Assembly (NCBI RefSeq): GCF_030384885.1
Contig: NZ_CP128613.1
Strand: one strand, 5' to 3'
Source: Escherichia coli
GTDB lineage: Bacteria; Pseudomonadota; Gammaproteobacteria; Enterobacterales; Enterobacteriaceae
DNA: 64,000 nt
How positions within the stretch are numbered: the first letter of the stretch is position 1; every line of letters begins with the position of its first letter. The position numbers were made by a program, and so were the translations under genes. Under the pieces are notes generated by a model, which had not been told where the DNA came from, made no database searches, and saw only the letters and a program-made list of their open reading frames with translations. Positions 4,859-42,426 of this stretch are shown in pieces.

Positions 4859-7492
4859 TTATTTGGGAAGCGCTGTTCCCCATTCACGCCACTCTTTCGG
4901 TTCACTTTCCTGCAACAGGAAGTGCTTGCCTTCCTGGGCTTTCGGTGCCAGCGGCGTACCCGGAGGCGTAGCGAAGGCGATGCCGCCACGGATAAACTGG
5001 TTAAAGGTGCCGGTTTTCACGACGCCGCCCGTCAGACCAAAGTCCAGACTGTAACCCGATGCCAACCAGAAGACGGAATTGTTACGCACCAGGTGTTGAT
5101 AGCGTTTACTGATGCGCATCGCAATCATCACGCGATCTGACAATGTCCCCAGCGTCATTCCGGTAACCGTACCGACTTCCAGACCACGGAACAGCACAGG
5201 CGTACCGATGCCTAACGAACCGGCTTCCGGCGCTTCAACAATAATGCTTAAGCCATCCAGGTAACGCGAATCAGTTATGGTGGCCTCTTGTAATTCAAAG
5301 TCGCGGCGAGGATTGCCCCGGCCTGGTTCGACGTTGATATACGGCTGGAGGATAGTATCAAGATGCTCAACGCCAGCTGCCGAAATTTGCGGTGTGACCA
5401 CTGAGAAGCGTGTACCACCGCGTGCAAAGGTCTGGACATATTCCGGATAGAGTACCGCCTTTGCCTGTACTTCATTGCGCGCGGTAATCAGATCCAGCGT
5501 CTGGATTTGCCCGATATCAATACCGAGATAGCGAATTGGCATCCCGACCGCCAGTTTTCCGGCATCGAAAGCGTGAAGCGTAATTTGCCCGCCAACCGCA
5601 CGGGCCGCTGTTTCGGAAGCATACAGAATACGCTTGTCGCCTTTACGCTGACTGGCGCTGGCACCGCTGAGGTTATCGAAGCTAATAGCTCCCTTTAATG
5701 CTCTGGAGAGCGGGGATGCCTGTACAGTCAGACCACTACCATTTAGCTGAACTTTCGCCCCACCTTCTGCCCAGAACACGCTGTTGCTGGTCAGAAGGTT
5801 GCGATACTCCGGCTTAATATGCAGATCGATATCAAACGCGTTAGCTCGCGGACGCACAGTAATAACTTCACCAACTTCAAATTTACGGTACAGCACTACC
5901 GATCCTGCCTGCACATCCGGCAGCGTCTCTGCACTCAAACTCACGGTTGTGGTGGGTAAATCGCTAAGGCTGTTCTCCAGCGCTTTTTCCAGATTGGCAT
6001 ACAGTGGATAGCTGGCTTTCATCTCGCCTTTATCGCCTGGCAGAATACGTATCCCGCCGTTAATCCATTCTGAGGCGCTGGCACCGAGAAACTCAACGCC
6101 ATCCAGCCCCACCTTCACGTCGACACGGCTGTTGACGACAAATTTGCTATCGCCTTTTACCAGTTCGCGATGCTGAGGCTCGATGGCGACGGTAAAGGTG
6201 ACGCCTTTGCTGGTGAGTTTACGATCGATAACCTGGCCTACCTGCACGCCGTGAAGAATGAGCGGCTGACCAGCATCAATACCGTAACTTTCCGGCGCAG
6301 TCAGGGTCAGCGTCAGAACATCTGGCTCATGGAGCAGGGCTTTTTCGCCAGGAACAACAATAAACTCTTTACGTGGCTCACCGTCGCCCGGCACCAACTC
6401 GAAGGTTTTGCCGGTCAGCAAGGTACTGAGATTAGCATCGCTAAGGGATAATTTTGGATTACGTAATTCGATGCGGGTATTTTCCCGTAACAGCGTTACG
6501 ACGCTGGGATCAACGGTCATTTCTCCGGTGACTTTACCGCCAGGATTTAAATCCAGTTTAGTCAGCTGTCCGACTTCCAGCCCCTGATACATTAACGGCG
6601 TAGAGTCGGCGGTTAATCCGGCCCCACTCGGCAGTTCCAGTTTTATTATTACGCCACGCTGGCTGTGGGCGAGATCTTCATACAGACCAAAGGTATCTTC
6701 CGCCTCGGCAGGTTTTGACTCTTCTGGCGAATCGAAGGCAATTGCACCGTTAACCAGTGCCGCCAGACTTTCCAGTTTCACTTTTGCGCCACTGATACTG
6801 ACGTTGGCATCAACGCCGGAAACGTTCCAGAAACGGCTACCTTTTTTCACCAGATCGGTAAAACGTCGCTCGATCAGGACATCAATCACTACGCCTTGCT
6901 TATTGGGATTGATGGCATAGTCGTAGACTTTACCCACCGGGATCTTACGGAAATATACCAATGAACCACTGTTCAGTGAACCGAGATCGGGGGCTTGCAG
7001 GTGGATCATCAGATCGCCGTTATCCAGCCGATATTTCGGTTGGGTATCGAGTGCGACAAAGTGATCCTGCTCTTTACCTTTACCCGGCATCATGCCGATA
7101 TAGTTACCCCCGACGAGGGCGTCCAGCCCGGAGACTCCTGCCAGCGAGGCTTTTGGCGTCACCAGCCAGAACTGTGTCTCCTCGCGCAGCGCATCTTTCA
7201 TATCGGACTTGATGCTGACTTTGACTTCAATCTTACGAAGATCGTCGCTCAGGCTGATATCTTGCACTGTTCCGACCTCAACGCCCTGATAACGAACAGG
7301 TGTGCGGCCCGGGACGATACCGTCCGCCGACATAAAGTCGATGGTGACGGTATTACCCCGATCCTGATAACTGTCCCAAATCAGCCAACCGGCAATCATA
7401 AGCGCGATGAACGGCAGCAGCCAGAAAGGTGAGATACGGCGTTTATTTTTAATCTGCGCTTCAGTCGTCGAAGCGGGCGTTTCCTGACTCAT
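4859..7492 (-). CDS. letB: Multi-MCE-domain periplasm-spanning lipid transport protein LetB (YebT)
   Basis: 877-aa product [36 protein letters not shown]... with repeated MCE domains; start at internal Met of ORF 4859..7534. Confidence 0.9.
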
Positions 7493-17566: not shown

Positions 17567-17776
17567 ATGGCAAAGATTAAAGGTCAGGTTAAGTGGTTCA
17601 ACGAGTCTAAAGGTTTTGGCTTCATTACTCCGGCTGATGGCAGCAAAGACGTGTTCGTACACTTCTCCGCTATCCAGGGTAATGGCTTCAAAACTCTGGC
17701 TGAAGGTCAGAACGTTGAGTTCGAAATTCAGGACGGTCAGAAAGGTCCGGCAGCTGTTAACGTAACAGCTATCTGA
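17567..17776 (+). CDS. cspC: Cold-shock-domain protein CspC
   Basis: 69-aa product [37 protein letters not shown]... with RNP1/RNP2 motifs. Confidence 0.95.
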
Positions 17777-34916: not shown

Positions 34917-35498
34917 ATGGCGGTTCAAAAGAATGTTATCAAAGGCATACTGGCAGGTACGTTTGCGCTAATGCTGAGCGGTTGTGTCACTGTGCCGGAC
35001 GCCATTAAAGGCAACAGTCCCACGCCGCAACAAGATTTAGTTCGGGTAATGAGTGCGCCGCAGCTGTACGTTGGTCAGGAGGCACGCTTTGGTGGCAAAG
35101 TGGTTGCGGTACAAAACCAGCAAGGGAAAACCCGCCTGGAAATTGCCACCGTACCGCTGGACAGTGGAGCCAGACCGACGCTGGGAGAACCTTCTCGCGG
35201 TCGCATTTATGCCGATGTGAACGGTTTTCTGGATCCGGTAGATTTTCGTGGACAATTGGTCACGGTAGTTGGACCAATCACCGGTGCGGTTGACGGCAAA
35301 ATCGGCAACACGCCCTATAAATTTATGGTGATGCAGGTAACGGGTTACAAACGTTGGCATTTAACCCAGCAGGTGATTATGCCGCCTCAGCCGATTGATC
35401 CATGGTTTTATGGCGGTCGTGGCTGGCCCTATGGCTACGGTGGATGGGGCTGGTATAATCCCGGCCCCGCGAGAGTACAAACTGTTGTAACTGAATAA
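34917..35498 (+). CDS. yeaY: Slp-family outer-membrane lipoprotein YeaY
   Basis: 193-aa product with lipobox (LMLSGCVTV) and Gly/Trp/Tyr-rich C-terminus. Confidence 0.88.
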
Positions 35499-35702
35499 TT
35501 GCTTGTTTTTAAAGAAAAAGAAACAGCGGCTGGTCCGCTGTTTCTGCATTCTTACGGTAAAGATAAAAATAAATAGTGACGCGCTTCGCAACCTTTTCGT
35601 TGGGTAATTATCAAGCTGGTATGATGAGTTAATATTATGTTAACGGCATGTATATCATTTGGGGTTGCGATGACGACGAACACGCATTTTAGAGGTGAAG
35701 AA

Positions 35703-37388
35703 TTGAAGAAGGTTTGGCTTAACCGTTATCCCGCGGACGTTCCGACGGAGATCAACCCTGACCGTTATCAATCTCTGGTAGATATGTTTGAGCAGTCGGT
35801 CGCGCGCTACGCCGATCAACCCGCGTTTGTGAATATGGGGGAGGTGATGACCTTCCGCAAACTGGAAGAACGCAGTCGCGCGTTTGCCGCTTATTTGCAA
35901 CAAGGGTTGGGACTGAAGAAAGGCGATCGCGTTGCGTTGATGATGCCTAATTTATTGCAATATCCGGTGGCGCTGTTTGGCATTTTGCGTGCCGGGATGA
36001 TTGTCGTAAACGTTAACCCGTTGTATACCCCGCGTGAACTTGAGCATCAGCTTAACGATAGCGGCGCATCGGCGATTGTTATCGTGTCTAACTTTGCCCA
36101 CACTCTGGAAAAAGTGGTTGATAAAACCGCCGTTCAGCACGTTATTCTGACCCGTATGGGCGATCAGCTATCCACGGCAAAAGGCACGGTAGTCAATTTC
36201 GTTGTTAAATACATCAAGCGTCTGGTGCCGAAATACCATCTGCCAGATGCCATTTCATTTCGTAGCGCCCTGCACAACGGCTACCGGATGCAGTACGTCA
36301 AACCCGAACTGGTGCCGGAAGATTTAGCTTTCCTGCAATATACCGGCGGTACCACTGGTGTGGCGAAAGGCGCGATGCTGACTCACCGCAATATGCTGGC
36401 GAATCTGGAACAAGTTAACGCGACTTACGGGCCGCTGTTGCATCCGGGCAAAGAGCTGGTGGTGACGGCACTGCCGCTGTATCACATTTTTGCGCTGACC
36501 ATTAACTGCCTGCTGTTTATTGAACTGGGCGGGCAGAACCTGCTTATCACTAACCCGCGCGATATTCCGGGGTTGGTAAAAGAGTTAGCGAAATATCCGT
36601 TTACCGCGATAACCGGCGTTAACACCTTGTTCAATGCGTTGCTGAACAATAAAGAGTTCCAGCAGCTGGATTTCTCCAGTCTGCACCTTTCCGCAGGCGG
36701 TGGGATGCCTGTTCAGCAAGTGGTGGCAGAACGTTGGGTGAAACTGACAGGACAGTATCTGCTGGAAGGTTATGGCCTGACCGAGTGTGCGCCGCTGGTC
36801 AGCGTTAACCCGTATGATATTGATTATCATAGTGGTAGCATCGGTTTGCCGGTGCCGTCGACGGAAGCCAAACTGGTGGATGATGATGATAATGAAGTAC
36901 CACCGGGTCAACCGGGTGAGCTTTGTGTCAAAGGACCGCAGGTGATGCTGGGTTACTGGCAGCGTCCGGATGCTACCGATGAAATCATCAAAAATGGCTG
37001 GTTACACACCGGCGATATCGCGGTGATGGATGAAGAAGGATTCCTGCGCATTGTCGATCGTAAAAAAGACATGATTCTGGTTTCCGGTTTTAACGTCTAT
37101 CCCAACGAGATTGAAGATGTCGTCATGCAGCATCCTGGCGTACAGGAAGTCGCGGCTGTTGGCGTACCTTCCGGCTCCAGTGGTGAAGCGGTGAAAATCT
37201 TCGTTGTGAAAAAAGATCCATCGCTTACCGAAGAGTCACTGGTGACTTTTTGCCGCCGTCAGCTCACGGGCTACAAAGTACCGAAGCTGGTAGAGTTTCG
37301 TGATGAGTTACCGAAATCTAACGTCGGAAAAATTTTGCGACGAGAATTACGTGACGAAGCGCGCGGCAAAGTGGACAATAAAGCCTGA
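35703..37388 (+). CDS. fadD: Long-chain-fatty-acid--CoA ligase FadD
   Basis: 561-aa product (M)[31 protein letters not shown]... with AMP-binding motif ([12 protein letters not shown]); initiates at TTG 35703, not at the upstream in-frame ATG. Confidence 0.92.
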
Positions 37389-37405
37389 GCGTTAAGTCAG
37401 TCGTC

Positions 37406-37433
37406 AGACGCCGGTTAATCCGGCGTTTTTTTT
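37406..37433 (+). terminator. Intrinsic terminator after fadD, immediately upstream of rnd
   Basis: GACGCCGG-TTAAT-CCGGCGT hairpin followed by T8. Confidence 0.8.
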
Positions 37434-37457
37434 GACGCCCACTAAAGAGAATACAAT

Positions 37458-38585
37458 TTGAATTACCAAATGATTACCACGGACGATGCGCTGGCTTCTT
37501 TGTGTGAAGCTGTCCGTGCCTTTCCGGCGATAGCCCTGGATACTGAATTTGTTCGTACGCGCACCTATTACCCGCAGCTGGGTCTAATTCAACTTTTCGA
37601 TGGCGAGCATCTGGCGCTAATTGATCCTCTCGGGATCACCGACTGGTCACCGCTGAAAGCGATCCTGCGCGATCCGTCCATCACAAAATTTCTCCATGCA
37701 GGCAGTGAAGATCTGGAAGTGTTCCTCAATGTCTTTGGCGAATTACCACAACCCCTGATTGACACGCAAATCCTTGCTGCCTTCTGCGGACGCCCGATGT
37801 CATGGGGTTTTGCTTCCATGGTGGAAGAGTATTCCGGCGTTACGCTGGACAAGAGTGAATCGCGCACCGACTGGCTGGCCAGACCGCTGACTGAACGTCA
37901 GTGTGAATACGCAGCGGCGGATGTCTGGTATCTGTTACCGATCACCGCAAAGCTTATGGTAGAAACGGAGGCCTCCGGCTGGCTACCTGCGGCGCTGGAT
38001 GAATGCCGCCTGATGCAAATGCGTCGTCAGGAAGTCGTTGCGCCGGAAGATGCCTGGCGTGATATCACCAATGCCTGGCAGTTACGCACACGCCAACTGG
38101 CCTGTCTGCAACTGTTAGCCGATTGGCGACTGCGTAAGGCGCGGGAGCGCGATCTGGCGGTGAACTTTGTCGTGCGTGAAGAGCATTTGTGGTCGGTAGC
38201 ACGTTATATGCCGGGAAGTCTTGGCGAACTGGATAGCCTGGGCTTATCCGGTAGCGAAATCCGCTTCCACGGTAAAACGCTGCTGGCGCTGGTGGAAAAA
38301 GCGCAGGCATTGCCGGAAGAGGCGTTACCGCAGCCGATGCTTAACCTGATGGATATGCCGGGTTATCGTAAAGCGTTTAAAGCGATTAAGTCGCTGATTA
38401 CTGACGTGAGCGAAACACACAAGATCAGCGCCGAATTGCTGGCATCGCGTCGGCAAATCAACCAGCTGCTGAACTGGCACTGGAAACTGAAACCGCAGAA
38501 CAATTTGCCGGAGCTGATTTCCGGCTGGCGTGGTGAGCTGATGGCGGAAGCATTACACAATTTATTGCAGGAATATCCACAGTAA
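37458..38585 (+). CDS. rnd: Ribonuclease D
   Basis: 375-aa product MNYQMITTDDALASLCEAVRAFPAIALDTEFVRTRTYYPQLGLIQL... (DEDD 3'-5' exonuclease plus HRDC); initiation codon is TTG at 37458, as known for rnd. Confidence 0.93.
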   Translation: MNYQMITTDDALASLCEAVRAFPAIALDTEFVRTRTYYPQLGLIQLFDGEHLALIDPLGITDWSPLKAILRDPSITKFLHAGSEDLEVFLNVFGELPQPLIDTQILAAFCGRPMSWGFASMVEEYSGVTLDKSESRTDWLARPLTERQCEYAAADVWYLLPITAKLMVETEASGWLPAALDECRLMQMRRQEVVAPEDAWRDITNAWQLRTRQLACLQLLADWRLRKARERDLAVNFVVREEHLWSVARYMPGSLGELDSLGLSGSEIRFHGKTLLALVEKAQALPEEALPQPMLNLMDMPGYRKAFKAIKSLITDVSETHKISAELLASRRQINQLLNWHWKLKPQNNLPELISGWRGELMAEALHNLLQEYPQ

Positions 38586-38598
38586 AATCTTCCGAAGC

Positions 38599-38636
38599 CG
38601 GACTGGGCGCGCTCAGCGCCACATCCGGCTTCGGCA
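38599..38636. terminator. Bidirectional hairpin between convergent rnd and yeaX
   Basis: Extended inverted repeat GAAGCCGGA...TCCGGCTTC between the two stop codons. Confidence 0.55.
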
Positions 38637-38638
38637 AA

Positions 38639-39604
38639 CTACAAATCCAACACCAGGCGTTTACCCTTCGCGCGTGAACAACAGATCAACATACTTTGCT
38701 GGCTGGCACGCTCTTCATCGCTAAAATACTGATCCCGATGGTCAGCTTCACCTTCCAGTATTGCCGTTTCGCAGGTTCCGCATACCCCTTCACGACATAA
38801 ACATTCCACTTTCGCTGCTTTACTATTTTCAATAACCTGCAAAATAGTCATCTCTTCCGCCACCACAAACTCTTTTCCGGAACGGGCAAGCACCAGCGTA
38901 AATGCATCGCCGGTTTTGTCTTCGATAGCAAATTGCTCAAAGTGCAGCGTATCGGTGGCGATGTCCAGACGCGCAGCTTCACTTCTTACCGCCTCATTTA
39001 GCGCCTCGGGGCCACAGGTATAAACATGTGTGCCAGGTTCGATATCCGCCAACAATCGCGCTAATTCCAGTCGTGTTCCGGTTGATGAATGATGCAAATG
39101 GACTTTCTCGGCCTGCGGATGCTGGACTAGCTCATCACGAAATGCGCAACTTTCTGGATTTCGCGAGCAGTAATGTAACTGCCAGTCGACGTCGCTGTAT
39201 TGCAACTCTGCCATGTGCGACAGGAAAGGGGTGATACCAATACCGCCCGCGATAAACAGATGCTTTCTGGCCGAGGGAATTAGCGCAAACAGGTTATTCG
39301 GCGTTGAAATCGTTAACCGATCGCCAGCCTTCACTTTCTGATGTAAAAAACGCGAACCGCCGCGCGAATTTTCTTCCAGTCGAACGGCAATCTGATAACG
39401 AGACGTATCGAGTGGCGAACTCAGCAGTGAGTACGCATTGCTGTACTGGTTATCACCATCGGCCATCTGCACAATGATGTGACTTCCGCCGTTGAACGCA
39501 GGCAGCGGTTTGCCATCGGTTGCCACCAGCGTGAAGCGTTTCACCTGTTCGGTAAGCGGTTCAACCTGGCTCACCTGTACTTCAAATATTTGGTAGTTTG
39601 ACAT
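38639..39604 (-). CDS. yeaX: Carnitine monooxygenase reductase subunit YeaX (CntB); FNR-like flavin reductase with 2Fe-2S ferredoxin domain
   Basis: 321-aa product MSNYQIFEVQVSQVEPLTEQVKRFTL... with C-terminal plant-type ferredoxin Cys motif (CREGVCGTCE). Confidence 0.9.
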   Translation of the reverse strand: MSNYQIFEVQVSQVEPLTEQVKRFTLVATDGKPLPAFNGGSHIIVQMADGDNQYSNAYSLLSSPLDTSRYQIAVRLEENSRGGSRFLHQKVKAGDRLTISTPNNLFALIPSARKHLFIAGGIGITPFLSHMAELQYSDVDWQLHYCSRNPESCAFRDELVQHPQAEKVHLHHSSTGTRLELARLLADIEPGTHVYTCGPEALNEAVRSEAARLDIATDTLHFEQFAIEDKTGDAFTLVLARSGKEFVVAEEMTILQVIENSKAAKVECLCREGVCGTCETAILEGEADHRDQYFSDEERASQQSMLICCSRAKGKRLVLDL

Positions 39605-40815: not shown

Positions 40816-42426
40816 TCAGTTGTCGCCTTTGAATACGGTTCCAGCAGGAAGCACTGGCGCTTTTCCCGGGGCTTCAACCGGTGTCTGCGGGAGATAATGT
40901 TCAACTTGATGAGCCGGAATGTCGGCGTAATCCTGTTTCAGCCAGCGAATAAATCCGCCGACTTTCACCAGTAAAATGGCGAGGAAGGGAAGGGCAGTGA
41001 GGACGACGGTAGTTTTCATTGTTTCCAGCGAAGCACCGGTAAACAAGATGGAAAGCGGGATCAGAGTGATCACTACGCACCAGAACAGACGCAGCCCACG
41101 GTCAGGATCGTCACCTTCCTGGAGATTACGCGTGCTGGTCGCCGCCATGGTGTAAGCCACCGCATCCATATGCGAGGCGAGGAAGATAATCATCACGCCC
41201 AGATAGGCCGCGAGGAACAATTTACCGGCTGGTAGAGACATCAGAACTTGCTGCACAGCTGTTTCGCCGCCCAGTGTTTCCAGCACCTGTGGGACGTTGA
41301 TTACGCCATTGATAAACTGATGAATGGCATAGCTTTCCATTACGCCGAAGAAGAACCAGCAACCGACGGTGCTGCCGAGGATCAGTCCCCAGATAACTTC
41401 TTTAATCTTACGACCGCGCGAAACTCGGGTGACAAACATTGCTACGCCAGGGGTGTATGAGATCCACCACAGCCAGTAGAAAACGGTCCAGTTGCGGGTA
41501 AATGAACCATCGCCAAGCGGATCGGTGAATAAGCTCATTTGCAGGAAGTTTTGCGTGGTCAGGCCGATGGCATTGATGATGCTGTTGGTAATAAATTCGG
41601 TTGGACCGACAATCAGCACCAGTAATGGCAGCAGGAATGCGCCCCAGCCAACCATTTTGCTTAGACGTTGCAAACCGTTGTTGATACCAATCCACGAGCT
41701 TAGGCAAAAAATGCCGCCGGAAAGCAGGATCACAAATGCCTGTACGGTAAAGTTATCGGGTAAACCGGTCAGCGCGGAAAGCCCACGGGTAAAGGTTGCT
41801 GCGGTGACAACAAGGGAAATGGTCAGTGCGCCGACAGTGGCGATCAGGAACATCAAATCGACCAGTTTCCCCCACGGGCCTTGCGGGCGAACGCCGGTAA
41901 TAGCAGCAATAATGCCGGAAAGGCTCAGCCCTTTATTTTTCCGCACATGAAAGTGATAAGCCATGATTAATGAGGCCAGCGTATAAGTTGCCCAGGCGCT
42001 GATGCCCCAGTGGAAGAAGGAGTAGGGAACGCTAAATTCGAGTGCCTGTTGTGAACGCGGTGCGATATTTAATCCAGGCGTTTGATAATAATAGGCCCAT
42101 TCAGCAACCCCCCAATAAAGCGTAGAAGAACCTAAACCTGCACAAATAAACATAAACAGCCAGGAGAGCGTGCTGTATTCCGGTTTTCCTTCGCCAAGAC
42201 GAATATTGCCGTATTTACTGGTGGCTAAATAAATCACCAGTCCCATTGCCAGCAAAACCAATACCTGTACGGCGGAACCTAACGTACGCGTAACAAAAGT
42301 GTATATTGCGTTGGCCGCGTCGGCCGATTGTTGTGGGAAAAGGCTTAATGCAGCTGCGATGAAAAGAATGGCCACCAGGCTGATGCTTATCAACGGCACA
42401 TCTTTTTTCTTAACATTGCTCATCAT
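40816..42426 (-). CDS. yeaV: BCCT-family transporter YeaV (CaiT-like)
   Basis: 536-aa ORF aligning from its N-terminus with CaiT-type BCCT transporters; overlaps the yeaW start by ~32 nt; exact start/end not certain. Confidence 0.85.

Follow-up and report, generated by a model that had tools for sequence, protein, structure and literature searches.

UUG initiation of fadD and rnd and the hairpin between them in Escherichia coli

Introduction

The adjacent genes fadD and rnd both seem to be translated from UUG codons, with a strong hairpin lying between them, which raises the question of where each gene begins and which of the two the hairpin serves. A sequence-only reading of the E. coli DNA analysed here (64,000 nucleotides of contig NZ_CP128613.1, the whole of which we call the window) had placed both starts at TTG and had taken the hairpin for the terminator of fadD. 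This is almost certainly the well-studied fadD-rnd junction of E. coli, with the fadD UUG at 35703, the terminator and SroD, and the rnd UUG at 37458. The two UUG starts, the terminator, SroD and the U-rich enhancer are already published, and the finding is correct and ordinary. The UUG starts and the intervening hairpin reportedly go back to experimental work of about 1988 to 1992. In K-12, fadD (b1805) was reportedly analysed by Black, DiRusso, Metzger and Heimert (J Biol Chem, 1992, as cited in PMC9329746), and the rnd leader, with its UUG start, stem-loop and U8, by Zhang and Deutscher (NAR 1988, J Biol Chem 1989, PNAS 1992). An adjacent pair of TTG genes is in itself unremarkable, as a TTG usage of 2-3% leads one to expect, by rough estimate, a few such pairs per genome.

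The locus and the genomes compared

Positions 35400-38800 are 100% identical to E. coli 2013C-4282, and the locus is present in 5,425 of the 5,426 E. coli genomes used for counts within the species. Conservation across species was scored on 80 Enterobacterales species (81 sequences in the alignment-based counts), and invariance in the region upstream of fadD on 64 distinct aligned sequences. Upstream of fadD and at its start, the sequence differs from K-12 by a single SNP, 220 nt 5' of the TTG. In K-12 coordinates the fadD TTG is at 1889746, the rnd TTG at 1887991 and the ATG of rnd codon 5 at 1887979. The TTG start, the 561-aa length and the FadR and CRP sites are common to both; there is no difference of substance, the window coming from another E. 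coli strain. The hairpin, T8, Shine-Dalgarno sequence (SD) and TTG of the rnd leader are likewise identical to those of K-12. The single difference is a SNP in the spacer between SD and start, T at 37452 here and A in K-12, a T/A polymorphism that divides E. coli (2,149 versus 3,264 genomes).

The fadD promoter

The control elements were mapped upstream of fadD as follows:
35528..35544, + strand: FadR operator 2 of the fadD promoter (GGCTGGTCCGCTGTTTC), covered by an exact match of the FadR-site-2 oligo (PMC3460868) at 35520-35552
35557..35604, + strand: CRP site region of the fadD promoter, an exact match to the CRP-site oligo (PMC3460868)
35614..35630, + strand: FadR operator 1 (AGCTGGTATGATGAGTT), assigned by sequence and adjoining the -10 hexamer TAATAT (35630-35635)

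Operator 2 lies within a palindrome immediately 3' of yeaY, and the CRP site has been validated experimentally, with EMSA oligos published (PMC3460868). The operator 1 block is almost invariant among the 80 species, and the spacing between the two FadR sites, about 68 bp, agrees with the published distance. With its operators at the published positions, the arrangement points to a FadR-repressed promoter of the fad regulon, and fadD would be transcribed under the control of FadR and CRP. We take transcription to start near 35643, going by the position of the -10 hexamer and by what Black et al. 1992 reportedly found.

Generic promoter and terminator scans gave hits that were not above chance in this region and were for that reason left out as evidence. 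One candidate from the promoter scan, TTAATA-18-TATCAT (35629-35658), was unsupported.

The fadD start codon

The start itself could be placed exactly:
35691..35698, + strand: fadD SD (AGAGGTGA), 4 nt 5' of the TTG
35703..37388, + strand: fadD CDS of 561 aa, TTG start (35703-35705) and TGA stop (37386-37388), on which PGAP and the K-12 annotation agree

All 64 distinct sequences have G at -11 and -8 and T at -7 in the SD region. The start codon is TTG in 75 of the 80 Enterobacterales species, GTG in 5 and ATG in 0. A 41-mer around the TTG was found in 5,416/5,426 E. coli genomes; the same 41-mer with ATG or GTG in place of the TTG occurs in none of the 5,426. Third-position entropy in codons 2-15 is about 8.5 times that of positions 1-2, a coding signal that begins right after the TTG. 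The SD distance, the conserved start and the coding signal from codon 2 are those of a UUG-initiated gene. The TTG is the start used in K-12 curation, and fadD is among the N-terminally sequenced proteins of EcoGene, the true site lying 11 codons below an upstream ATG. The coordinates, the curation, the EcoGene entry and the conservation thus bear out the claim that fadD starts at TTG 35703, 3' of an in-frame ATG.

The fadD leader is less structured than its shuffles (folding z = +1.4), so that structure masking the UUG is unlikely. Translation would proceed from an unstructured leader with a strong SD (AGAGGUGA), UUG 35703 giving the 561-aa acyl-CoA synthetase.

In-frame ATG codons upstream of the fadD TTG

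The longest open reading frame in the fadD frame runs from ATG 35637 to the TGA at 37386-37388 (583 aa), and two in-frame ATG codons precede the TTG:
35637..35639, + strand: in-frame ATG heading the longest ORF, at -22 codons, between the -10 hexamer and the presumed transcription start, without an SD
35661..35672, + strand: SD-like GGGG, 5-nt spacer and in-frame ATG 35670 (-11 codons), marked by conservation, tetracycline ribosome profiling (TetRP) and a start-site predictor

ATG 35637 was rejected as the fadD start, given its place 5' of the presumed transcription start and its lack of an SD; it is conserved as part of the promoter block. ATG 35670 was not mentioned in the sequence-only reading. 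Its GGGG-N5-ATG block is possibly a minor or regulatory second initiation site. On this account fadD would have dual starts, the UUG at 35703 and the AUG at 35670, and the upstream one would either yield a 572-aa FadD with an 11-residue extension or tune use of the UUG as a site of ribosome entry or occlusion. We consider such a dual start doubtful. An ATG lies exactly 33 nt upstream, with the frame open, in 71 of the 81 sequences, and 64 of those 71 carry an SD-like 4-mer 4-5 nt 5' of it. In TetRP it is entered as 'alt-N'(new)' with 572 aa and a signal of 4.04 versus 0 with chloramphenicol, so that the UUG may not be the sole initiation site of fadD; this signal is low, however, and the TetRP authors caution that weak sites may be noise. 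A Bayesian start-site predictor assigns a probability of 0.663 to ATG 35670 and 0.013 to the fadD UUG, whereas the N-terminally verified start is the UUG. In codons -10 to -5 the third positions vary slightly more than positions 1-2 (ratio about 1.6), but this periodicity is weak against the 8.5 found within the CDS. Conservation also extends beyond the ATG to the whole 20-nt block, which could therefore be a binding site in DNA or RNA. Moreover, the GGGG-N5-ATG block is missing in three Yersinia species, Rahnella, Rouxiella and Edwardsiella, and is out of frame in Chimaeribacter. We dismissed a small GCG/CGC hairpin around ATG 35670, as it shows no co-variation and has mismatches in most sequences.

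At the protein level the two starts predict different N-terminal peptides, MKKVWLNR from TTG 35703 and MTTNTHFR from ATG 35670. Both fadD and rnd are absent from the searched supplements of an E. coli N-terminomics study (TRAINSPOTTER) and of a Salmonella proteoform study. Evidence for starts upstream of the fadD TTG, which would speak against the earlier placement, is thus weakly positive at the ribosome level (ATG 35670 in TetRP), with none at the peptide level.

The terminator hairpin and SroD

Downstream of fadD, one hairpin closes two transcripts:
37407..37433, + strand: intrinsic terminator of fadD and SroD, with an 8-bp stem including one G-U pair, a 5-nt loop and T8
37347..37432, + strand: SroD sRNA (Rfam RF00370), made up of the last 42 nt of fadD (including the stop codon), the 3' UTR and the terminator

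The stem pairs ACGCCGG (37408-37414) with CCGGCGT (37420-37426), to which G37407-U37427 is added, around the loop UUAAU; six of its eight pairs are G-C, and the T run comprises exactly eight bases (37426-37433). The hairpin has a folding energy of -14.4 kcal/mol (z = -4.2), and none of 200 shuffles folds as well. A generic terminator pattern is not enriched in the 3.5 kb stretch (4 found, 4.1 expected), and the site is distinguished by its position 18 nt past the stop, its conservation and published 3' ends. The core CGCC[AG]G...C[CT]GGCG is present in 69/80 species. Term-seq 3' ends at K-12 positions 1888017, 1888018 and 1888020, from three samples, correspond to 37432, 37431 and 37429 of the window and fall on the 7th, 6th and 4th U of the run. 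A stem-loop with a U run that follows a stop codon and has published 3' ends in vivo is what defines an intrinsic (Rho-independent) terminator. The claim that a strong hairpin and T8 terminate fadD agrees with these data, and fadD transcripts would end there.

The SroD match is full length (model positions 1-86 of 86) and scores 115.2 bits (E = 7e-24), the gathering threshold of RF00370 being 50 bits. Among 20 representative species, 10 are above threshold, all of them Enterobacteriaceae. SroD was found in the RNomics screen of Vogel et al. 2003, as cited in PMC5874903. Its 3' end is the same as the Term-seq ends, and the final 86 nt of terminated or processed fadD RNA would be SroD. That the terminator hairpin doubles as the 3' end of SroD was absent from the earlier reading. 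The 5' domain of the Rfam model showed no co-variation support in a 41-species alignment (68.7% paired, 352/500 shuffles equal or better), a result that concerns the model structure and not membership of RF00370 by sequence.

The rnd start codon

Two starts were considered for rnd:
37444..37451, + strand: rnd SD region (AAAGAGAA), a conserved AAGAGA block
37458..38585, + strand: rnd CDS of 375 aa, TTG start, from the K-12 annotation
37470..37472, + strand: codon-5 ATG, the next in-frame ATG and the start chosen by PGAP (371 aa)

The TTG (37458-37460) sits 25 nt after the last T of T8 and 8 nt after a modest SD (AAGAG), behind which rnd translation would begin. The spacing of the AAGAGA block is constant from E. 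coli to Yersinia and Serratia. Across the 80 species the start is TTG in 76 and GTG in 3; one Edwardsiella locus has CTA at this position, directly after an ATG one codon upstream. Within E. coli, 5,413/5,426 genomes have the TTG, and none of the 5,426 carries the ATG or GTG form. Codons 2-4 vary almost solely at third positions (codon 3 is TAT in 40 sequences and TAC in 35). As for fadD, the SD distance, the conserved start and the coding signal from codon 2 are those of a UUG-initiated gene. The start at TTG 37458, about 25 nt past the hairpin and T8, was confirmed by its coordinates, K-12 curation and conservation. That rnd is known to use UUG holds as well, as reviews cite it as a UUG mRNA (PMC7769764) and the curated K-12 protein has 375 aa.

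It is very improbable that rnd instead starts at ATG 37470, the TTG being merely an in-frame, Leu-like codon of the leader. PGAP does place the start there in 3/3 genomes checked, and ATG is a stronger start codon than TTG, but nothing purine-rich precedes this ATG (…TTGAATTACCAAATG), and the conserved spacing of AAGAGA suits the TTG. Codons 2-4 (N-Y-Q) are conserved with synonymous variation, and residue 5 is Met in 57 of the 81 sequences and Leu in 21 (Leu, Ile, Phe or Tyr in 24/81). Both K-12 curation and the literature also treat rnd as starting with UUG. The PGAP start is probably a mis-annotation. The N-terminal peptides expected are MNYQMITTDDALASLCEAVR for TTG 37458 and MITTDDALASLCEAVR for ATG 37470 (also MNYQMI versus MITTDD).

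Retention of UUG across the order in both genes, with GTG as the sole alternative, is a clean example of selection maintaining weak start codons. In reporters, UUG expression is 6-8 times below that of AUG (PMC3592434). The weak codons may have been selected to hold both proteins low.

The putative rnd promoter and the rnd leader

The 3' end of fadD and the region after it hold two further elements:
37351..37379, + strand: putative rnd promoter inside the 3' end of fadD (GTGACG, 17-bp spacer, GACAAT), suggested by invariant synonymous sites
37402..37437, + strand: extended leader structure, with an outer helix of CGUCA (37402-37406) and UGACG (37433-37437) around the hairpin 37407-37427

Among the synonymous third positions of fadD, those at 37352, 37355, 37358 and 37379 never vary and that at 37376 hardly does; the third positions around them change freely. 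Both CGTGACGAA and ACAATAA are retained even where the FadD C-terminus is divergent. Judged from these patterns, the rnd promoter most likely lies within the last codons of fadD, and rnd transcription would start at about 37386-37388, which corresponds to 1888061-1888063 in K-12. Among the transcription-start coordinates in the Cappable-seq and Adams supplements searched, none lay close to the start of either gene. With its promoter inside fadD, the hairpin and U8 would belong to the rnd leader.

On another reading the hairpin would serve rnd chiefly as a leader attenuator instead of terminating fadD, and the abundant 3' ends and SroD would come from the rnd promoter. We regard this as unlikely. 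A likely promoter does lie 5' of the hairpin, the Term-seq authors also list the same 3' ends as 27-29 nt 5' of the rnd ORF, and in two species with an intergenic insertion a copy of the hairpin and U tract remains beside rnd. In Yersinia and Serratia, on the other hand, the hairpin remains with fadD rather than with rnd. SroD is published as 3'-UTR-derived and FadR-dependent, and its 5' end (37347) lies about 40 nt 5' of the presumed rnd start, so that it derives from fadD transcripts or from another promoter. The two roles are also mutually compatible, and termination of fadD remains the preferred reading of the hairpin.

The extended structure, in which five U (37428-37432) are left as a bulge, has a folding energy of -18.8 kcal/mol (z = -4.7). 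Pairing in its outer helix amounts to 85-90% across Enterobacteriaceae and includes compensatory changes; none of 500 shuffles reaches this level, and slid controls give 28-55%. The strand at 37402-37406 co-varies with bases past the U tract, outside SroD, in which it differs from the RF00370 model. The helix would form in read-through RNA or in RNA from the rnd promoter, closing over the terminator hairpin. The minimum-energy helix predicted for E. coli, GCGUUAAG/UUUGACGC, was discarded as not conserved (69.7% paired, versus 75.7% in one slid control).

Zhang and Deutscher reportedly claimed in 1992 that removing the U-rich tract cuts rnd translation, with the mRNA not lowered. Two papers describe the tract as enhancing translation of the rnd mRNA with its UUG start (PMC7769764; PMC5934652). 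The sequence-only reading held that rnd depends on the upstream stem-loop for its expression; a leader enhancer is indeed published, but what these two papers name is the U-rich tract rather than the stem-loop itself. The tract is described as helping the 30S subunit to bind and would offset the weak start codon, and the outer helix with its five-U bulge could be how the enhancer is offered to the ribosome. Just 5' of the rnd SD, the tract comprises 6-8 U and keeps its position in most Enterobacteriaceae, where the hairpin end is usually 31-35 nt from the rnd start codon (38 nt in Mangrovibacter). Outside this family (Yersiniaceae and others) the hairpin lies beside fadD, 39-194 nt from rnd, and a GU-rich tail replaces the U run, so that dependence of rnd on the hairpin and U8 cannot be order-wide. 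The fepB leader, with a GUG start and an A/U-rich enhancer, likewise has a U-rich single-stranded tract shortly 5' of the SD of a gene with a non-AUG start. The rnd tract differs from enhancers of the fepB type in being also the U tail of a terminator and in being framed by a helix that is conserved in the alignment.

We propose only tentatively that a low-level second initiation region in fadD is joined at this locus by a co-varying helix (37402-37406/37433-37437) that presents the enhancer U tract. Neither was found in the literature searched, as far as we could find. If this is true, both order-wide UUG codons would be parts of tuned low-output initiation regions, and the two elements, if confirmed, would modestly refine the textbook picture of both leaders.

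Other non-AUG starts and gene calling

The practical value of the locus is in annotation, as PGAP shortens RNase D by four codons in the E. coli genomes checked. The warning that gene calling would mis-start here was justified by the PGAP start of rnd and by the preference of the predictor for ATG 35670. With PGAP wrong at rnd and the predictor wrong at fadD, the locus is well suited to testing start-site callers. The five genes said to start at GTG (rsmF, mgrB, yoaA, leuE and dgcP) are all so annotated here, with CDS lengths that agree with K-12; for yoaA, leuE and dgcP the GTG codon was read directly in K-12. Among the 70 annotated CDS of the window, 9 start with GTG and 2 with TTG, about the usual proportion for E. 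coli. Four further GTG genes that the earlier reading did not list are manX, sdaA, nudL and mipA.

Locus and comparison sets

Genes on the + strand at this locus follow the order tsaB, yeaY, fadD, rnd, with yeaX convergent. Over 35400-38800 the sequence matches the E. coli 2013C-4282 chromosome at 100% identity, and 5,425 of 5,426 complete E. coli genomes contain this stretch. Against K-12 MG1655, one base differs in the rnd start region (160 nt) and one in the fadD start region (270 nt), and K-12 coordinates are directly transferable because neither region contains an indel. Orthologous loci were collected from 80 Enterobacterales species, from Citrobacter to Pectobacterium, Yersinia and Edwardsiella (76-99% FadD identity).

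The observations of the sequence-only reading are correct, all match the published K-12 locus, and are already known. The fadD locus of K-12 was reportedly described by Black et al. 1992, the rnd locus by Zhang and Deutscher 1988, 1989 and 1992, and SroD by Vogel et al. 2003. Our additions are the order-wide conservation figures, a mis-start of rnd by PGAP, the connection with SroD and with Term-seq 3' ends, a conserved putative second initiation region in the fadD leader, a likely promoter footprint in fadD synonymous sites, and a helix spanning the U tract.

Translation start of fadD

The longest fadD frame runs from ATG 35637 to TGA 37388 (583 aa), with TTG 35703 in frame 22 codons downstream. 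The sequence-only reading placed the start at this TTG, downstream of an in-frame ATG; all of its coordinates are correct, and the start is backed by a verified N-terminus and by conservation. In the EcoGene set of N-terminally sequenced proteins, the verified fadD site is 11 codons downstream of the one chosen by a Bayesian predictor. Across the 80 species the start codon is TTG in 75, GTG in five and ATG in none. It is preceded at a fixed distance by a Shine-Dalgarno (SD) sequence (AGAGGTGA, CAGGAGT or CGAGGTG), in which G -11, G -8 and T -7 are invariant among 64 distinct aligned sequences. A strong coding pattern begins right after the TTG: column entropies summed over codons 2-15 amount to 2.7 at codon position 1, 1.1 at position 2 and 16.3 at position 3. 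Some genera carry an in-frame stop 6, 13 or 14 codons upstream of the TTG, and therefore a long FadD extension cannot be universal. The TTG-centred 41-mer is present in 5,416 of the 5,426 E. coli genomes, and its ATG or GTG version in none of them. No significant structure was found in the fadD leader (folding z = +1.4).

Two features lie upstream of the TTG:
35630-35635, + strand: fadD -10 hexamer TAATAT, abutting FadR operator 1
35661-35672, + strand: SD-like GGGG and in-frame ATG, at a conserved offset from the TTG

Transcription of fadD would start near 35643, judging from the position of the -10 hexamer and from Black et al. 1992, who reportedly place it there. ATG 35637 was rejected as the translation start: it sits between the hexamer and this putative transcription start and is conserved only within the promoter block. 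A palindrome directly after yeaY (35519-35545, GAAACAGCGG...CCGCTGTTTC) includes FadR operator 2; it is terminator-like on the - strand only, where it has a T-rich tail, and no convergent gene lies there. In Citrobacter amalonaticus AUH_CA_2023_1 (L054), fadD starts with GTG instead of TTG, and an apparent 1-nt indel is followed by a premature stop at about codon 50; an assembly error or a pseudogene is the probable explanation.

A second in-frame ATG in fadD

A single point complicates the account of fadD: a second in-frame ATG at 35670, absent from the sequence-only reading and 11 codons upstream of the TTG. An ATG at exactly -33 nt with an open frame occurs in 71 of 81 sequences, and in 64 of these 71 a GGGG, GAGG or similar 4-mer precedes it by 4-5 nt. 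Nakahigashi et al. (Table S5) list this ATG as a new alternative FadD N-terminus (572 aa), with a tetracycline ribosome profiling (TetRP) value of 4.04 and a chloramphenicol control of 0. The conserved offset, frame and SD-like motif, together with this listing, speak for production of an extended 572-aa FadD from ATG 35670, which we nevertheless consider unlikely. The verified N-terminus is the TTG, codon positions differ only weakly between ATG 35670 and the SD (summed entropies of 4.6, 4.6 and 7.2), several Yersiniaceae and Edwardsiella lack the ATG block, which in Chimaeribacter is shifted out of frame by one base, and the TetRP authors caution that weak sites may be noise. No co-variation was detected in the alignment for a hairpin around the ATG. 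A minor or regulatory role in initiation is possible for ATG 35670 but rather unlikely, with TTG 35703 as the start of fadD.

Translation start of rnd

The second UUG start that had been proposed, that of rnd at TTG 37458, has correct coordinates, and both the comparative data and K-12 curation favour it. This codon lies 25 nt past the last T of the T8 run that follows the intergenic hairpin. The curated K-12 protein, read from the TTG, has 375 aa. In each of the three PGAP-annotated E. coli genomes that were checked, this strain and two others, PGAP places the rnd start at ATG 37470 (codon 5; 371 aa). Among the 80 species the start codon is TTG in 76 and GTG in three. The one exception is an Edwardsiella locus with CTA at this position and an ATG as the codon immediately before it; in the other Edwardsiella locus the same extra ATG precedes a TTG. 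Variation in codons 2-4 (Asn/Thr-Tyr-Gln) is almost confined to third positions (codon 3 reads TAT in 40 distinct sequences and TAC in 35), only 57 of 81 sequences have Met as residue 5, and a conserved AAGAGA block is spaced for the TTG. Nothing SD-like was seen upstream of ATG 37470, and this codon is disfavoured as the start by the pattern of codons 2-4, the unconserved Met5 and the SD placement.

A SNP at 37452, in the spacer between SD and TTG, is T in the window and A in K-12. The TTG is present in 5,413 of the 5,426 E. coli genomes (2,149 with T and 3,264 with A), and no ATG or GTG variant was found on either background among the 5,426. Part of the review literature cites rnd as a UUG-initiated mRNA (PMC7769764). 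Both starts have an ACA triplet upstream, at a distance of 5 nt for rnd (37453-37455) and 23 nt for fadD (35680-35682); rnd (5) and fadD (22) are among the mRNAs listed in a MazF-regulon study as cut near start codons.

Termination of fadD and SroD

The hairpin between the two genes is as follows:
37408-37414 and 37420-37426, + strand: stem ACGCCGG/CCGGCGU plus one G-U pair, loop UUAAU

The T run after it is exactly eight (37426-37433). Alone, the hairpin folds at -14.4 kcal/mol (z = -4.2), and none of 200 shuffles folds as well. Matches to a simple terminator pattern are no commoner in this region than expected (4 against 4.1); the case for a terminator rests on position, conservation and published 3' ends. 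In three Term-seq samples strong 3' ends fall at K-12 1888017, 1888018 and 1888020, corresponding to 37432, 37431 and 37429, the 7th, 6th and 4th U of the run, which bears out the claim that the hairpin terminates fadD. In the Term-seq table these ends are attributed to both sroD and fadD. Rfam RF00370 (SroD) matches 37347-37432 at full length with 115 bits; the match spans the final 42 nt of fadD, counting its stop codon, followed by 3' UTR and terminator. Among 20 representative species, 10 exceeded the threshold for the family, and these 10 are all Enterobacteriaceae. Elsewhere in the literature (including PMC5874903) SroD is described as a FadR-dependent RNA that is encoded at the fadD 3' end and derives from the 3' UTR. 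SroD had not been mentioned in the sequence-only reading, and the RefSeq records examined do not annotate it.

Of the 80 species, 69 carry the hairpin core CGCC[AG]G...C[CT]GGCG. A tail of 6-8 U combined with a nearly fixed spacing to the rnd start (31-35 nt; Mangrovibacter 38) is confined to Enterobacteriaceae. In Yersinia, Serratia and others the hairpin adjoins fadD, 39-194 nt before rnd, and its tail is GU-rich. Loci of two species, L044 (4181-4406) and L049 (4187-4360), carry a 100-150 nt insertion between the genes; a copy of the hairpin and U tract still stands at the usual distance from rnd despite the insertion, and L044 has a second copy of hairpin and U run directly after fadD.

The rnd leader

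Expression of rnd had also been said to depend on the upstream stem-loop. The hairpin would indeed be in the rnd leader, but this wording is slightly off because the published element is the U tract: the title of Zhang and Deutscher (1992) names a uridine-rich sequence.

In about 50 Enterobacteriaceae, synonymous third positions in the last 48 nt of fadD are invariant in two blocks:
37341-37358, + strand: first block, including CGTGACGAA
37374-37381, + strand: second block, GACAATAA

Upstream of the blocks, third-position entropies are 0.5-2.0, and both blocks are kept even where the FadD C-terminal sequence differs. From their sequence, the blocks match a sigma-70 promoter (GTGACG-17-GACAAT) whose transcripts would begin near 37386-37388; this would be the likely rnd promoter inside fadD. 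Zhang and Deutscher are said to have placed the rnd promoter upstream of the hairpin. The SroD 5' processing site may also fall within the first block.

Around the hairpin, CGUCA (37402-37406) pairs with UGACG (37433-37437), leaving five U as a bulge; with this outer helix the structure reaches -18.8 kcal/mol (z = -4.7). The helix is 85-90% paired in 41-44 Enterobacteriaceae sequences, with compensatory changes from C-G to U-A and A-U; slid controls gave 28-55% pairing, and none of 500 shuffles matches the observed pairing or co-variation score. It is possible only in read-through or rnd-promoter RNA because its 3' strand lies beyond the termination point. Neither the Rfam SroD 5' domain, which uses the same 5' strand, nor a longer helix preferred by the E. 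coli sequence alone has comparable support in the alignment. With only 4-5 pairs and related sequences, the alignment is suggestive of an outer helix in the leader.

Expression model and start-codon strength

According to the literature, fadD is transcribed under FadR and CRP control. The open leader and strong SD, seen in sequence and conservation, may offset its weak UUG. Transcripts end inside the U tract, following the literature data mapped onto the window, and SroD arises from the fadD 3' end, as Rfam and the literature indicate. The rnd gene would be transcribed from its own promoter inside fadD, giving a leader that holds the hairpin and U8, where the U tract is reported to aid 30S binding, ahead of a modest SD and a UUG start, both shown by their conservation. 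A joint reading, with low-level initiation at the second fadD region and the U-tract-spanning helix presenting the enhancer, is doubtful, and would be of modest interest if true.

In reporters, UUG expression is 6-8 times below AUG (PMC3592434). Neither UUG is replaced by ATG in the 80 species or the ~5,400 E. coli genomes, and GTG arose about five times; together these suggest, modestly, selection for low initiation strength at fadD and rnd (by our estimate roughly P = 0.03 for five events if ATG and GTG are equally likely).

Other starts and annotations in the window

The GTG starts proposed for rsmF, mgrB, yoaA, leuE and dgcP are all annotated as such in the window; K-12 CDS lengths match for all five, and the GTG itself was read in K-12 for yoaA, leuE and dgcP. 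Further GTG starts are those of manX, sdaA, nudL and mipA; the 70 annotated CDS include 9 GTG and 2 TTG starts.

The best database match, NZ_CP027579.1, is not identical to the window, which has one additional G in a G run at ~23690 (yoaE) and one SNP near 5925. The extra G keeps yoaE intact (518 aa), and the gene is marked frameshifted in the NZ_CP027579.1 record. The gene at 17567-17776 is named cspE by PGAP, and the K-12 gene in the same place, between yobF and rlmA, is cspC. Finally, yeaV (40816-42426, - strand) encodes 536 aa from an ATG in the window and is annotated in K-12 as 481 aa from a TTG; the K-12 copy looks 5'-truncated or rearranged, because the sequence upstream of its annotated TTG is unrelated to the window.
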